Below are positions 4,206 to 25,356 of a stretch of 32,969 bases of DNA, in pieces. Position 1 is the first letter of the stretch. Each line of letters starts with the position of its first letter. This DNA comes from Candidatus Taylorbacteria bacterium RIFCSPLOWO2_01_FULL_45_15b (GTDB taxonomy: Bacteria > Patescibacteriota > Minisyncoccia > Phycocordibacterales > 01-FULL-45-15b). A program made the translations under genes and the position numbers. The notes below the pieces were generated by a model. The model worked only from the letters and a program-made list of their open reading frames with translations. It had not been told where the DNA came from and ran no database searches. The DNA lies in assembly GCA_001822655.1 (NCBI GenBank), contig MHRX01000010.1:4200-37168 (forward strand), written 5' to 3'.

Positions 4206-4297
4206 TTATAATTTCCTTTCCACGGGCAACAGTATCACTATGCGACAGGGCTGTCAAGTATCCCCGACAAGAAGAAACAACTACAATTCATTTAATT

Positions 4298-5311
4298 ATG
4301 TCTATCTGGACAAGAAAGTTGGGAATCGATCTCGGCACAGCAAACACGCTCGTTTTTTTGCCGGGAAAGGGAATTGTGCTAAATGAGCCGTCAGTTGTAG
4401 CAGTATCGCAACAAGACAATAAAATCCTCGCGGTCGGCCTTGAGGCAAAAAACATGATCGGCAAAACTCCTGAAAATATAATCGCCTACCGACCAATGAA
4501 AGATGGCGTCATAGCGGACTATCGCGTTACCGAAGCCATGCTCCGCTATTACATGACGAAGGCTCTCGGACGATTCAACATATGGCGACCTGAAGTCATG
4601 GTTTCTGTTCCCGCCGGCGTTACTTCAACCGAGCGACGCGCCGTCATAGAAGCGGCAATAAAAGCCGGAGCTAAAAACGCGTATGTGGTGAAGGAACCGA
4701 TTCTCGCGGCCATCGGAGCGGGGATTCCGATTCACGAAGCGAGGGGACATATGATCGTGGACATCGGCGGAGGGACGACGGACGTTGCTGTGATCTCACT
4801 CGGGGGCATCGTCGCTTCCACTTCAGTTAAATGCGCGGGAAACAGAATCGACGCCGCCATCGCGGACTACATTAAAAAAACTTTCAATCTCGCAATTGGA
4901 GACAAAATGGCGGAGGATATAAAAATCCAGGTGGGATCCGCCGTTCCGCTCGAAGAAGAACTTTCGATGATCATAAAAGGAAGAGATTTTATTACGGGAC
5001 TTCCACGTACAGCGGAAGTGCGGACAAACGAGATAGTGAAATCCATAGCAAAAGAACTTCGAGAAATGATAAAAGCGATTAAAGATGTTCTCCAAGAAAC
5101 ACTTCCTGAACTTTCGGCGGATATTATAGACAATGGCATCATTATGACGGGTGGTTCCTCTCTACTTCGTAATTTTCCCGAACTTGTCTACCGAAGGACC
5201 GGAGTAAAAGCCGTGCTGGCGAAAGAGCCGCTTTACTGTGTCGCGCGAGGAACAGGCATCGCACTCGAACATTTGGATACTTACAAAAAAACTGTTATAG
5301 CGAAGAGATAG
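4298..5311 (+). CDS. mreB: rod shape-determining actin-like protein MreB (stand-alone paralogue)
   Basis: 337 aa. It has the phosphate-1 motif LGIDLGTANTLVF, NEPSVVA, the phosphate-2 motif VDIGGGTTDVAVISLGG and the adenosine motif IIMTGGSSLL. Confidence 0.9.
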   Translation: MSIWTRKLGIDLGTANTLVFLPGKGIVLNEPSVVAVSQQDNKILAVGLEAKNMIGKTPENIIAYRPMKDGVIADYRVTEAMLRYYMTKALGRFNIWRPEVMVSVPAGVTSTERRAVIEAAIKAGAKNAYVVKEPILAAIGAGIPIHEARGHMIVDIGGGTTDVAVISLGGIVASTSVKCAGNRIDAAIADYIKKTFNLAIGDKMAEDIKIQVGSAVPLEEELSMIIKGRDFITGLPRTAEVRTNEIVKSIAKELREMIKAIKDVLQETLPELSADIIDNGIIMTGGSSLLRNFPELVYRRTGVKAVLAKEPLYCVARGTGIALEHLDTYKKTVIAKR

Positions 5312-13869: not shown

Positions 13870-15573
13870 ATGCGGAAGCGTAGAATACTCGATTTCTTCA
13901 CAAAGAAAACCGATCAGCGGTCATCGGAAATTTTTCCTGAAGAGATTTTTCTCGACTCGACGAATCTGCCCTCATTTGACATTCATCAATTTGAAGGGCG
14001 TATGGAAAAGCCGATATCAAAAGGTGTCTTTATTGTCGCCGGATTATTTTTTTTTCTAATCGGCGTTGGATACCTCGTAAAAGTCGCCGACCTCCAGATA
14101 GTCGAGGGATCATCTTTCAGCGCGCGTAGCACCAACAACCGACTACAGCACGAGTTATTTTTCGCGGAACGCGGCGTGATTACGGACCGAAACGGCGTCC
14201 TGCTTGCATGGAACGGCCCCAACAAAGCTAGCCCGGAATTCTCAAGGCGAGAGTACACGGCTATTGCAGGGCATGCGCACGTCCTCGGATATGTTAGATA
14301 TCCAGCAATCGACGCGAACGGATTTTATTACGAAACGGAATACAAAGGGGTAACGGGAGTAGAGGAATTCTATAATTCCTATCTATCCGGAAAAAACGGA
14401 CTTAAGATAATCGAGACGACAGCACTCGGAGACATCACATCGGAAAATGCGATCACGCCGGCGGAACATGGAGAAACATTGCGACTCTCAATTGATTCGG
14501 AGTTTCAAGAAAAATTTTACGACATCATACGCGAACTCTCAAATGATGTCGGTTTTCTGGGCGGCGCGGCCGCACTCATGAATTTGAAGACGGGGGAAAT
14601 TCTCGCGATGACAAGTTACCCGGAGTACAGCCCCGATCTTCTCACCAACGGCGCCGACAATGAACAGATCACCGTGGCATTGAATGCCCCCGGCACTCCG
14701 TTTTTAAATCGTATTACGAGCGGGCTGTACACGCCGGGATCAATAATGAAAGCGTACGTCGCGCTCGGCGCATTAAATGAAAAGATAATTTCACCAGATC
14801 GTCAAATTCTAAGCACAGGCTCTCTTGTTATTCCAAATATTTACGACAGTGAAAACGCTTCTGTGTTCAACGACTGGAAAGCGCACGGCTACGTGGACAT
14901 GCGTCGAGCCCTCGCAGTATCGTCAAATGTTTATTTTTATGAAATCGGCGGGGGATACAAGGACCAGGCCGGTCTCGGCATAACAAACATCGAAAAATAC
15001 TTTAGAATGTTTGGTTTTGGATCGCCTGTCGAAGCCGAATTTTTCAGGGGGCCTTCGGGAACAATACCGAACCCGTCGTGGAAACGCTCAACCTTTGAAG
15101 ACGATTGGCGACTCGGCGACACTTACAACACGGCGATAGGGCAATATGGCGTGCAAGTCGTACCAATGCAGGCGCTCATTGGCGTCGCGACGATTGCAAA
15201 CGAGGGTGTCGTACCGGTTCCGACTATTATAAAAACCGACGCGCCGTTGTTCGGAAAACCAGTCGATATCCCTCGAGAATATTTCGAGGTAGTAAAGGAG
15301 GGTATGAGGCAAGGAGTACTCGAGGGCACCGCCGCCGCACTCAATGTCTCGGGCCTCAATATCGCCGCCAAAACAGGAACAGCGGAGATAGGGTCATTGA
15401 AACAATACGTAAATTCCTGGGTTACAGGTTTCCTGCCGTACGATGATCCTAAGTACGCATTCGTGGTGGTTATGGAAAAGGGGCGGCGTTCAAACTTGAT
15501 CGGCGCGCCGGCTGTGGCCAGACAATTTTTTGAATGGATGGCGATCAACCGCTGGGAAGAATTTGTCAAATAG
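13870..15573 (+). CDS. mrdA: penicillin-binding protein 2 (elongasome transpeptidase)
   Basis: 567 aa with an N-terminal TM segment. The motifs SxxK (GSIMK), SxN (SSNVYF) and KTG (AKTGTAE) are present, and the gene follows mreBCD. Confidence 0.88.
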   Translation: MRKRRILDFFTKKTDQRSSEIFPEEIFLDSTNLPSFDIHQFEGRMEKPISKGVFIVAGLFFFLIGVGYLVKVADLQIVEGSSFSARSTNNRLQHELFFAERGVITDRNGVLLAWNGPNKASPEFSRREYTAIAGHAHVLGYVRYPAIDANGFYYETEYKGVTGVEEFYNSYLSGKNGLKIIETTALGDITSENAITPAEHGETLRLSIDSEFQEKFYDIIRELSNDVGFLGGAAALMNLKTGEILAMTSYPEYSPDLLTNGADNEQITVALNAPGTPFLNRITSGLYTPGSIMKAYVALGALNEKIISPDRQILSTGSLVIPNIYDSENASVFNDWKAHGYVDMRRALAVSSNVYFYEIGGGYKDQAGLGITNIEKYFRMFGFGSPVEAEFFRGPSGTIPNPSWKRSTFEDDWRLGDTYNTAIGQYGVQVVPMQALIGVATIANEGVVPVPTIIKTDAPLFGKPVDIPREYFEVVKEGMRQGVLEGTAAALNVSGLNIAAKTGTAEIGSLKQYVNSWVTGFLPYDDPKYAFVVVMEKGRRSNLIGAPAVARQFFEWMAINRWEEFVK

Positions 15574-23894: not shown

Positions 23895-24317
23895 CTAATC
23901 TTTTAAGTCCATCCACATCTCATCCATCACTTCAGCTTCCGTGGGTGATTGAATCGTCGGTTTAGAATTTAAAAAAACAACTCCGAAGAAAAAAGTGTCG
24001 TTTCGAATCATATATCGAGCTCTAATAGCTCCGTCGTAAAATCCGACGCGCCTCACAATTATTCCCCGAGACGTTTTCAGCATTCGTGCTACTGCTTTCA
24101 TCCTGGGGGTCGCCATATTACTCAATTCCGTACTTGGCACACCAGCTTCATGAGTTGACGTTTCCCAGAGTCTTTTGAGTGCTTCGTCCGTAAGATAATC
24201 ACGGATCTTGCCCTCAACATCAACAAACATCGCATCGCTTGCACTGTGCAATACAAGCAAACATCTCGGCAAATAATCCGCCAATTCTATACCCGGTCTC
24301 ATTTCAGACTCAATCAT
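23895..24317 (-). CDS. hypothetical protein
   Basis: A 140-aa ORF with its own terminator, divergent from the tRNA locus. No motif recognised. Confidence 0.45.
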   Translation of the reverse strand: MIESEMRPGIELADYLPRCLLVLHSASDAMFVDVEGKIRDYLTDEALKRLWETSTHEAGVPSTELSNMATPRMKAVARMLKTSRGIIVRRVGFYDGAIRARYMIRNDTFFFGVVFLNSKPTIQSPTEAEVMDEMWMDLKD

Positions 24318-24460
24318 AAAGATGCCTTTCCATTCGAGACTCTATGCATATTTAGCTCACCTGTCAATGAGTAGCGAATTTACAATACTCGTCGCAATGG
24401 AGACGACGCAAAACACGGCGCTAATTTCGATTTTTTAAAAATAATGGTATGCTTTTTTTG

Positions 24461-24503
24461 CTTAGATTCTTATTCTAGATTCGATATTCTAGATTCCAGA
24501 TTC
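24461..24503. repeat. AGATTC / 14-bp tandem repeat
   Basis: TATTCTAGATTCGA (24471-24484) and TATTCTAGATTCCA (24485-24498) are tandem, with partial units on both sides. AGATTC starts at 24464, 24477, 24491 and 24498. Confidence 0.8.
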
Positions 24504-24518
24504 TATGTCAACGGCTAA

Positions 24519-24568
24519 AACAATTCGCAGCGAATTGTTCGCCCGAACATTTTGTCGAACAAAATGTT
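24519..24568 (+). other. two adjacent perfect hairpins with 3-nt loops
   Basis: The first is AACAATTCG, loop CAG, CGAATTGTT (24519-24539). The second is AACATTTTGT, loop CGA, ACAAAATGTT (24546-24568). They lie immediately 5' of the tRNA-like element. Confidence 0.7.
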
Positions 24569-24572
24569 TTAG

Positions 24573-24637
24573 GGCACTATCGTCTATCGGCTAGGACATC
24601 GCCGTCGAAAGGTGAGGAATGGGTTGGGACCCGTTCC
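24573..24637 (+). pseudogene. tRNA-like 5' half (Glu-type acceptor and D arm, anticodon-like arm, long hairpin) with no T-arm
   Basis: Positions 24577-24598 are identical (22/22) to 24775-24796 of tRNA-Glu. A 5-bp stem TCGCC/GGTGA carries a 7-nt loop GTCGAAA with U33 and A37 in place, which would read as anticodon CGA. A 9-bp hairpin follows at 24616-24637. No canonical T-arm or 3' acceptor strand follows directly. Confidence 0.4.
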
Positions 24638-24770
24638 GCAAGACCTTTTGAGATATAATTGAGCCTGCGAAATTTTATCCAAAGAGTGTACTGGTCCTGT
24701 AAAGATGCGAGCAGGTGATATAAGATAATAGAATATGCGGCCCTATCGGTTGTGATAGGTGCCTGTGGAC

Positions 24771-24842
24771 GGCCCTATCGTCTATCGGCTAGGACACAGC
24801 CTTCTCAAGGCTGGAAGCAGGGTTCAATTCCCTGTAGGGTCA
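24771..24842 (+). tRNA. tRNA-Glu (anticodon CTC)
   Basis: A manual cloverleaf of 72 nt. The acceptor stem is GGCCCTA/TAGGGTC. The D stem is GTCT/GGAC. The anticodon stem is CAGCC/GGCTG with loop TTCTCAA (CTC at 24804-24806). The variable region is 4 nt. The T stem is CAGGG/CCCTG with loop TTCAATT. The discriminator is A, and no CCA is encoded. Confidence 0.85.
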
Positions 24843-24940
24843 AAATACGAAAAAATACTGAACTGCTTCAATATTTTCTGAAAATTTGAAGACGGAGTGT
24901 TGTTTTGTCAGCAGGCAAAACCGCGAGTCCGAGGCTGGAA

Positions 24941-24966
24941 AATTTCCGTCTGACGAGACGGAAATT
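24941..24966. repeat. 11-bp perfect hairpin
   Basis: AATTTCCGTCT, loop GACG, AGACGGAAATT. Confidence 0.7.
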
Positions 24967-25098
24967 ATTGTGGCACATGCAGGGATGTTTCAACAGTATT
25001 TAAAACCGCTAGCTGGGGTCGCGAGTACTTACGTATTTTAGAGATTTTTATCTTTAAAATACTGCGGCGAGCAAGAAACCGATGCGACCATTTGTGAC

Positions 25099-25128
25099 CC
25101 GCGATCTGCCATGATCGTGGTTTTTTCT
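25099..25128 (+). terminator. rho-independent terminator ending a non-coding block downstream of tRNA-Glu
   Basis: CCGCGATC, loop TGCCAT, GATCGTGG (8 bp with one G-U pair), followed by TTTTTTCTT. Confidence 0.65.
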
Positions 25129-25142
25129 TGTCTAAAGTTATA

Positions 25143-25170
25143 TATTTCATACGATATATCGTATGAAATA
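25143..25170. repeat. 28-bp perfect palindrome TATTTCATACGATATATCGTATGAAATA
   Basis: Every position was checked. It shares the 14-bp core TACGATATATCGTA with 5707-5734. Confidence 0.9.
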
Positions 25171-25202
25171 CGTTATGATTCAAACGCATACGTTAATCAA
25201 AT

Positions 25203-25256
25203 TACATTATTCATCAACCTACATTATTCCCGCGGTCGCGTGAATAATGTAGGTTG
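25203..25256. repeat. TACATTATTC repeated twice direct and once inverted; 15-bp hairpin
   Basis: The direct copies are at 25203-25212 and 25220-25229, and the inverted copy GAATAATGTA is at 25242-25251. The arms CAACCTACATTATTC / GAATAATGTAGGTTG (25215-25256) enclose a 12-nt GC-rich loop. Confidence 0.8.
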
Positions 25257-25266
25257 CCAGTGAACT

Positions 25267-25288
25267 ACCCTGCGCACAAGCGCAGGGT
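25267..25288. repeat. 9-bp GC-rich hairpin
   Basis: ACCCTGCGC, loop ACAA, GCGCAGGGT. Confidence 0.7.
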
Positions 25289-25341
25289 GTTCTGGCGAGA
25301 AGTCATAAAAGTACACGGCGACGAGTAAAATATTCGTGGCC

Positions 25342-25356
25342 GGTTCCCTGTAGGTC
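25342..25356 (+). other. fragment resembling the 3' end of tRNA-Glu
   Basis: GGTTCCCTGTAGGTC compares with the tRNA's GGTTCAATTCCCTGTAGGGTC. The exact shared 11-mer TTCCCTGTAGG is at 24828-24838 and 25344-25354. Confidence 0.45.

Follow-up and report, generated by a model that had tools for sequence, protein, structure and literature searches.

Probable insertion scar upstream of tRNA-Glu in a Taylorbacteria genome: a displaced tRNA fragment joined to a structured, gene-less element

In Campbell-type insertion-duplication, which is used with suicide plasmids, a circle that carries the 5'-terminal fragment of a gene is inserted by a single crossover. CTX-phi and the integrative mobile elements exploiting Xer (IMEX) have a folded single-stranded attP hairpin that mimics the target duplex and is recombined by XerCD, and the tyrT operon of Escherichia coli contains distal 178-bp repeats and the rtT RNA (Rfam RtT). 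Islands and prophages reportedly enter tRNA and tmRNA genes via tyrosine integrases, with sublocations in the anticodon loop, the T loop and the 3' end, a description that is attributed to Williams (2002, Nucleic Acids Res). A further group are the miniature palindromic repeats of bacteria, among them miniature inverted-repeat transposable elements (MITEs), REP/BIME elements and Rickettsia palindromic elements; a review is available (PMC3184786). Here, we analyse positions 24573-24770 of a stretch of 32,969 nucleotides (nt) from Candidatus Taylorbacteria bacterium RIFCSPLOWO2_01_FULL_45_15b. This whole stretch is the window; it corresponds to C10:4200-37168 of an assembly (G000) of 923 kb in 57 contigs that is 91% complete. 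The analysed positions, which arose by a mechanism that we infer from the arrangement, probably consist of a displaced 5' fragment of tRNA-Glu and of a somewhat worn copy of a structured element that lacks genes and is anchored at tRNAs. The copy belongs to a family, defined in this analysis and called core A, whose stems covary and about half of whose members lie beside tRNA genes, nearly always co-oriented and adjoining a duplicated piece of the tRNA; homologous insertions exist at tRNA-Glu in other bacterial families, and there is one filled/empty pair. The family is widespread but patchy in Patescibacteria, the copy studied here is an ordinary, atypically placed member of it, and the element is apparently undescribed in databases and literature.

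The unit upstream of tRNA-Glu

Upstream of the intact tRNA-Glu gene lies a partial second copy, which comprises tRNA nt 1-34 and thus spans the acceptor 5' strand, the D arm, the 5' strand of the anticodon stem and the loop through the first anticodon base (Table 1). The first-pass annotation, made from the letters alone, had recognised the acceptor 5' strand and D arm at 24573-24598, and indeed 24577-24598 is identical to tRNA-Glu 24775-24796 in all 22 positions, with C4 to A as the single change over nt 1-26. An exact 22-nt repeat at a distance of 198 nt is far beyond chance, which is not true of a 5-bp stem or a 7-bp pairing on its own. Divergence is higher at nt 27-34, where 24599-24606 reads TCGCCGTC and the gene CAGCCTTC. 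The TCGCC at nt 27-31 of the fragment is the actual anticodon-stem allele of tRNA-Glu in the relatives G341, G375 and G310. The 5' end of the fragment was also examined for a foreign acceptor allele of tRNA-Glu by scanning its 14-mer GGGCACTATCGTCT against the species genome collection; with at least 120 matches in unrelated phyla, this word is too short to inform on a foreign origin.

The element that follows most likely comprises the accessory hairpin, core A and the AT-rich tail, is about 165 nt long, contains no open reading frame (ORF) and sits in the former anticodon loop, after nt 34. The tRNA-Glu gene has kept its function thanks to the two copies of nt 1-34: the one on the left is most likely a dead fragment with the native upstream flank, the one on the right part of the intact gene. 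No ORF of at least 60 amino acids was found on either strand in 24318-24964, and a sigma-70 scan of 24300-24850 gave no plus-strand promoter and a number of sites not above that in shuffled sequence. The tail holds a second short copy of the tRNA 5' end, GGCCCTATCG (24739-24748), which had already been noticed, and the near-antisense GATAGGTGCC (24754-24763); the latter pairs with the adjacent GGCCCTATC (24739-24747) to form a local hairpin of 9 bp with one bulge.

Table 1 Features at the tRNA-Glu locus (positions of the window)
Feature	Position	Strand	Basis
Terminator-like repeat hairpin TCGCCCGAAC-ATTTTGT-CGA-ACAAAAT-GTTTTAGGG	24539-24574	+	abuts the left edge of the fragment
Displaced tRNA-Glu 5' fragment (tRNA nt 1-34)	24573-24606	+	30/34 identical to 24771-24804
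Junction linker GAAAGG (GAGAGG in G004 and G349)	24607-24612	+	alignment of four upstream units at tRNA-Glu
Accessory module TGAG - 9-bp hairpin (24616-24637) - GCAAG	24613-24642	+	other copies in G000, hairpin folds
Core A: P1/P2 hairpin with bulged A (ACCUUUUG-A-GAUAU...AUAUCCAAAGAGU), GUGUACUG, P3 with UGUAA loop	24636-24712	+	covariance model R1, hidden Markov model (HMM)
AT-rich tail, from the element to the intact gene	24713-24770	+	sequence, 10-nt repeat search, fold
Intact tRNA-Glu(CTC), no encoded CCA; the only tRNA gene in the window	24771-24842	+	ARAGORN; Rfam RF00005, 53.5 bits
Type-B core units (GACGGAG..ATG-hairpin-CGCGAG...GACGAG...GTGACCA-like) downstream of tRNA-Glu	24843-25356	+	by-eye comparison, no model

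Homologous upstream units are present at tRNA-Glu in three relatives, G004, G349 and G336, which belong to three other families. In G004 (anticodon CTC), an exact 35-nt copy of tRNA nt -1 to 34 is followed by GAGAGGTGAGG and the hairpin; core A and a tail of 36 nt then lead up to the gene. The junction of G349 (TTC) also lies after nt 34 and is followed by GAGAGGTGAGG; its fragment has T34 like its own gene and is itself split, at nt 12, by a nested insert of 72 nt. The same element follows nt 19, in the D loop, in G336 (CTC). Each fragment has the lineage-specific D-loop variants of the gene next to it, which implies gene conversion or re-integration. The tails of the three relatives are unrelated and the GGCCCTATCG/GATAGGTGCC hairpin is found only in the tail of the window. 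None of the four upstream units has an antisense arm beside the fragment. On this ground, the unit at tRNA-Glu counts as an upstream variant of the core-A family.

A filled/empty pair is provided by G336 and G030, a member of the same genus that has a plain tRNA-Glu without the unit. The upstream flank of the G030 gene (AAAATCTGTTATAAATAT...) is homologous to the flank of the G336 fragment (85% over 54 nt in BLAST) and not to the sequence that precedes the intact gene of G336; the native promoter side stays with the fragment. G001, from the same genus as G000, has tRNA-Glu without an upstream unit and with a downstream one. A tblastn search with five proteins of the window that flank the locus against the loci of G001, G004, G349 and G336 revealed no shared neighbours except a murE fragment, differently arranged, at the G336 locus, and therefore no orthologous empty site can be defined for this exact locus.

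With these relatives at hand, the tRNA-like folding of the stretch proposed by the first-pass annotation can be judged. The 5-bp stem TCGCC/GGTGA with the loop GTCGAAA is present at 24599-24615, and no T arm follows the next hairpin, exactly as described. That 9-bp hairpin exists as well, but it is not a variable arm: it is the accessory hairpin of the element, which recurs at other genes. The "anticodon arm" is a chance pairing of the TCGCC strand of the fragment with the conserved GGUGA of the element; because TCGCC is the tRNA-Glu allele of other lineages, the neat stem is most simply a coincidence, and it has five base pairs only in G000 but three in G004 and G349. The segments GGTGCCT (24758-24764) and GGGCACT (24572-24578), taken for an acceptor-like closure, are complementary and are used in the minimum-energy fold of 24572-24770, but this long-range pairing is not conserved and has no counterpart in G004, G349 or G336, none of which has a 3' strand able to close the acceptor stem. 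It is a local by-product of the further short sense/antisense copy of the tRNA 5' end, in which GATAGGTGCC pairs just as well with the adjacent GGCCCTATC. The fold of 24572-24770 as a whole is unexceptional (z = -1.81; 8 of 200 shuffles fold as well).

The unit shares with tRNA-integrating islands an insert at a tRNA loop position, a gene rebuilt by partial duplication, a partial tRNA copy at one end, a direct repeat of part of the tRNA as boundary (30/34 here, exact over 35 nt in G004) and tandem arrays of inserts at the same tRNA. It differs from them in size and content, since islands have kilobases and an integrase beside the att site whereas the unit has about 165 nt, no integrase and no ORF. 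In addition, the duplicated part is 5' here and usually 3' in islands, the junctions of the family are scattered from nt 13 to nt 60 instead of being fixed, and the unit brings its own covarying hairpin core. Campbell-type integration predicts the observed order exactly, the repeat being the carried fragment, although, for double-stranded DNA, about 200 nt would make a very small circle. MITE- or REP-type repeats are likewise small, ORF-less, hairpin-forming, multi-copy and patchy, and one composite form of the family has terminal inverted repeats. Unlike MITEs, the tRNA-linked copies lack generic terminal inverted repeats and a short fixed target duplication, and their flanks are copies of the neighbouring gene; at tRNA-Glu there are no terminal inverted repeats and the flanking repeat is 34 nt of tRNA.

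A structured module with many copies

Positions 24613-24712 are a conserved structured module, made up of the accessory hairpin and core A, that is not derived from tRNA. The accessory part, with the consensus GGUGAG-hairpin-CGCAAG, stands directly 5' of core A. A search of the genome with 24540-24850 found recurrences at C10:1041-1071(-), C48:186-223 and C20:1960-2022; the first two are copies of the accessory module with compensatory changes in the stem. In a set of 19 accessory copies from 14 genomes, 17 form hairpins of 7-9 bp with many different stem sequences between conserved flanks, and the copies adjoin tRNA-Lys, tRNA-Thr, tRNA-Ala, tRNA-Asn, 5S rRNA and protein genes.

In the core-A consensus, 16 bp form a hairpin from which a single A bulges (ACCUUUUG-A-GAUAU...AUAUCCAAAAGGU); the conserved GUGUACUG comes next, and then a second hairpin of 4 bp whose loop reads UGUAA. 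In an alignment of 27 copies from G000 and 14 related genomes, 92.7% of the cells are paired and 17 of the 20 pairs show double changes. None of 500 shuffles reached any of these measures, and slid partners were paired in at most 52%. On the strand shown, paired positions contain 12 G-U pairs compared with 4 A-C mismatches, and the unpaired GUGUACUG and UGUAA are conserved. The copy in the window scores 68.5 bits with the covariance model R1, whose training set included it (24636-24712), and an HMM built from five other copies, with this one excluded, finds it at 24640-24704 with E = 3e-6. With three broken pairs and two G-U pairs out of 20, it is somewhat more worn than the median copy.

No family of Rfam 15 matches the module: the whole window at gathering thresholds, 24300-25100 at E ≤ 10 and three further module loci at E ≤ 1 gave nothing beyond canonical tRNAs and chance matches. 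Full-text searches of the literature on tRNA repeats, structured RNAs and palindromic elements of the candidate phyla radiation (CPR)/Patescibacteria and on rtT yielded no description of the core-A family, and a preprint on bacterial tRNA mimics deals with other RNAs.

The model R1 finds 28 core-A copies in the 0.92 Mb of G000. Eighteen have a tRNA gene within 700 nt, and each of these is on the strand of the tRNA, 15 of them downstream; among the G000 copies, that at tRNA-Glu is the one which clearly lies upstream, and its module ends 59 nt upstream of the gene on the same strand and has the 5' fragment directly to its left. When each of the 33 tRNA genes predicted by ARAGORN in G000 was compared with its own 700-nt flanks, a downstream direct copy (at least 10 nt) of the gene's own 3' part was found for 22, most of which also have an inverted copy of the T-arm region between gene and downstream copy. 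An upstream direct copy of the own 5' end was found for five, i.e. the genes for tRNA-Asn, tRNA-Glu, tRNA-Ile(GAT), tRNA-Lys(TTT) and tRNA-Arg(TCT).

A typical downstream unit begins with the tRNA 3' end, a short spacer, the antisense of the acceptor 3' strand and a covarying hairpin; then come a second antisense segment, to the T stem and loop, a core that is of either type A or type B, and a sense copy of tRNA nt ~54-76. Its closing stem mimics the acceptor and T stems of the adjoining tRNA. Such an order of sense, short spacer, antisense, body and sense fits the integration of a hairpin-bearing single-stranded circle, as in CTX-phi and IMEX, but the upstream unit at tRNA-Glu lacks the antisense arm by the fragment, and neither a Xer site nor a replication gene was identified. 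Like the rtT repeats, the units are tandem and non-coding, lie beside a tRNA gene and each contain a copy of a tRNA end; unlike them, they give no RtT match (E ≤ 10) and share no common core with rtT, which is found downstream only and in another phylum. The type-B units 3' of tRNA-Glu end in a copy of its 3' end, GGTTCCCTGTAGGTC, at 25342-25356. The type-B core is also found 3' of three tRNA-Gly genes and of tRNA-Val, tRNA-Arg and tRNA-Ala in G000 and of tRNA-Glu in G004.

Three of the other upstream 5'-end copies have a different context. At tRNA-Ile(GAT) (C18 ~14255-14435) and tRNA-Lys(TTT) (C19 ~14175-14352), the first 10-11 nt are copied about 180 nt upstream and are followed by a third type of element, rich in CCCGCCCGAAC...CGGGCGGG hairpins. 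At tRNA-Arg(TCT) (G000:C56 ~4273-4640), a 14-nt copy of the 5' end at -362 is followed by hairpins rich in GC and by a small ORF whose start resembles GIY-YIG (MIGYVYILKDENHQFYIGST...); by its appearance, this is another kind of insert that bears a gene but shares the arrangement of a duplicated 5' end.

Core A is not confined to tRNA genes. Four near-identical composites of about 350 nt occur at non-tRNA loci of G000 (C7:5717-5788, C32:1677-1748, C51:5611-5682 and C35:11745-11816); they are MITE-like, with long terminal inverted repeats (AGAGCCTATCTCC...; AGAGCCTATCTCCAATCTAA...) around a core-A copy. Nested small palindromes (GTCGACAGGGATATTGTCGAC) were seen in some of them. In another genome (L021, G040:C3:38464-39545), a core-A unit lies 3' of the 5S rRNA gene, whose 3' end and flank are copied at the end of the unit (CCAGAACTTAGTATTCGAT), and therefore the family also anchors on 5S rRNA. 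A core-A unit at L041 (G346:C1:85500-86500) begins within the last codons of a protein gene, whose stop codon TAG lies inside the accessory hairpin.

The distribution was examined with a 25-nt core-A pattern of 21 specified bases, matched exactly against a collection of genomes from 185,579 species. It gave at least 125 matches on at least 119 contigs, and among the matches listed every record that names a taxon belongs to Patescibacteria, including Paceibacterota, Nomura-, Kaiser-, Taylor-, Lloyd- and Vogelbacteria and metagenome-assembled genomes (MAGs) labelled "Saccharibacteria". Again among the matches listed, 59 lie within 400 nt of a tRNA gene, of 26 tRNA species altogether, and 51 of these share the strand of the tRNA, 38 of them downstream and 13 upstream. 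Eight of the 13 listed upstream elements are preceded by an exact copy of 13-60 nt that starts from tRNA nt 1, with junctions at nt 13, 17, 17, 18, 23, 26, 42 and 60 or beyond. The upstream form is therefore a regular minority of the family, and its tRNA junction is not site-specific. The pattern had no match in viral contigs, and no phage carrier was found. Within the same order, dozens of genomes gave BLAST matches to the element when 40 and, in a second round, 250 of them were searched with the unit. Within the class, a sample of 201 genomes contained core A in only 9, at 1-4 copies each compared with 19-28 in G000.

Insertion scar, functional RNA or altered tRNA gene

The order of native flank, truncated fragment, element, new tail and intact gene is that which a single crossover with a circle would give. 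The insertion that we favour would start from a circle carrying the tail, tRNA nt 1-k and the element, which would enter by a Campbell-type crossover within the tRNA piece, brought about by homologous recombination or by some recombinase. For the unit at tRNA-Glu, the circle junction would read tail, tRNA nt 1-34 and then GAAAGGTGAGG, and recombination between the two direct repeats could regenerate the circle. The near-universal conservation of tRNA sequences would let such a cassette spread between lineages. After insertion, gene conversion may partly homogenise the fragment with the neighbouring gene, while the fragment would otherwise decay. The element most likely needs its conserved fold to propagate, be it in the form of RNA or of folded single-stranded DNA.

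That the cassette travels with a piece of a conserved host gene is suggested by a protein gene. In G254 (L044, C9:39900-40850), the first 14 codons of a P-loop kinase gene (42 nt, MLIGITGTDGAGKG) occur twice, at 376-417 and 560-601, with the accessory hairpin and core A between them. All 10 positions at which the copies differ are synonymous third positions, as would be expected if both had evolved in working genes of different lineages and the target piece had been imported; decay in place is not expected to give this pattern. Because of these kinase copies, the TCGCC allele in the tRNA-Glu fragment, the 5S-linked unit and the four non-tRNA composites, the sequences point to a mobile, horizontally spreading cassette that carries a piece of a conserved host gene. 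It is tempting to go one step further and to regard core A and the accessory hairpin as the nucleic-acid half of a new insertion system of Patescibacteria, a gene-less unit of ~100-200 nt that uses the host copy as a programmable homing address. The host gene, be it a tRNA, 5S or a conserved gene end, would then be rebuilt on landing, and movement would be brought about by an unrecognised trans-acting recombinase, or the fold itself would be a ribozyme or deoxyribozyme; we regard this extension as quite unlikely.

Several points weigh against the insertion scar. The unit contains no gene at all, be it for a recombinase, a reverse transcriptase or anything else, and none is linked to the family. 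An antisense arm like that of the downstream units is missing from the upstream ones, and one mechanism may not cover both. The junction shared by three families, together with the lineage-specific tRNA identity of the fragments, needs gene conversion or repeated re-integration, and the single filled/empty pair of G336 and G030 is compatible with gain or loss. Finally, the co-orientation with tRNAs, the excess of G-U pairs and the conserved unpaired GUGUACUG and UGUAA would also fit a co-transcribed functional RNA.

Such an RNA is the most serious competitor, even if we consider it unlikely. The unit would then not be selfish but a structured part of the tRNA transcript, a 5' leader here and a 3' trailer elsewhere, acting as a small RNA or as a cis element for folding or processing; the tRNA-processing enzymes would release it and the tRNA-derived flanks would be their handles. 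The strong covariation, the co-orientation with tRNA genes in all 18 cases in G000 and in 51 of 59 among the matches listed for the phylum, the preference for G-U over A-C at paired positions (12 vs 4), the conserved unpaired nucleotides and the closing stem of downstream units that imitates the acceptor and T stems of the neighbouring tRNA all agree with it. However, core A is present in only 9 of the 201 class genomes at copy numbers from 1 to 28, same-genus relatives have the same tRNA without the unit, copies are found at 5S rRNA, at the ends of protein genes and in the MITE-like composite far from tRNAs, and the copy in the window has three broken pairs. A function as RNA is compatible with mobility, since a mobile element may need its RNA fold.

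Of the origins that the first-pass annotation had left open, "scars of repeated recombination at this tRNA" came closest to what we propose, a displaced 5' fragment joined to an inserted repeat element. Its decayed tandem duplicate of tRNA-Glu, i.e. a local duplication followed by drift without any foreign element, is right in that nt 1-34 derive from the tRNA and finds some backing in the two partial 5' copies (24573-24606 and 24739-24748) that stand in tandem upstream of the gene. As an account of the whole unit it is very improbable, because the interior, 24613-24712, is a separate conserved module that matches 28 sites of the genome and many other genomes, nothing like nt 35-76 follows the fragment, and the same junction of fragment and element recurs in other families. 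Hardly credible is a non-canonical tRNA-like gene with a large insertion, or a tRNA-Glu with a very large intron; the upstream fragment would serve as exon 1 and be joined, by splicing, either to the gene body downstream or to a cryptic 3' half, giving a functional RNA. The intact D-arm sequence, the 5-bp stem with its 7-nt loop, U33 and purine 37, the possible acceptor-like closure and the junction at nt 34/35 speak in its favour. Position 34/35 is a classic anticodon-loop position of bacterial tRNA introns. But there is no T arm, ARAGORN found no tRNA upstream and Rfam (24300-25100, E ≤ 10) neither an upstream tRNA nor a group I or II intron, the latter being absent at E ≤ 1 from three other module loci as well; neither stem nor closure is conserved in G004, G349 or G336, and other upstream junctions are scattered from nt 13 to nt 60. 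Moreover, an uninterrupted tRNA-Glu lies directly downstream, which makes splicing needless, and because the copies are duplicates, a group I splice would need one nucleotide to be both the terminal U of the 5' exon and the terminal G of the intron. A group I or II intron was thus rejected: no model matched, and nt 1-34 are duplicated instead of one gene copy being interrupted.

Consequences and neighbouring features

Units of this kind are a source of false "tRNA halves", of pseudo-tRNAs and of odd hairpins near most patescibacterial tRNA genes and can mislead tRNA counts, callers of att sites and genomic islands and the calling of gene starts. A genome of 0.92 Mb under strong reduction contains 28 copies of the module and has duplications of tRNA ends at two thirds of its tRNA genes; the element is either an unusually successful parasite of the most conserved sequences of the cell or contributes to tRNA expression. 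Its flanks are copies of conserved gene ends, and the synonymous-only differences of the kinase copies suggest a route for DNA between diverged lineages with tRNA genes as portable homology. If targeting should prove programmable, this would be a very compact site-specific insertion system.

The terminator-like hairpin at the left edge of the fragment is a neighbour and lies outside the core-A element. A second copy of it (G000:C56:11774-11809; L005:1500-1535) stands directly 3' of the stop codon of a gene, and the two have conserved flanks, whereas their stems differ by compensatory changes (ACATTTTGT/ACAAAATGT vs ACATTCTGT/ACAGAATGT). Cell-wall genes, encoding a penicillin-binding protein (PBP) transpeptidase and a Mur ligase, neighbour the locus in the window; the nearest named record to the PBP is a MAG of an "uncultured Candidatus Saccharibacteria" with 54% identity.

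It should be mentioned that ARAGORN found no tRNA-Glu(TTC), tRNA-Ser(CGA), tRNA-Trp or tRNA-Tyr and a single tRNA-Met in G000. The genes for tRNA-Ser(CGA) and tRNA-Glu(TTC) are adjacent in the relatives L013, L014 and L040, so that both are probably within the missing ~9% of the assembly and not truly absent. Upstream of the fragment, at 24465-24505, there is a cluster of short TTCTAGATTC-like direct repeats, and similar words also occur on contigs C30, C27, C11, C12, C15 and C52.

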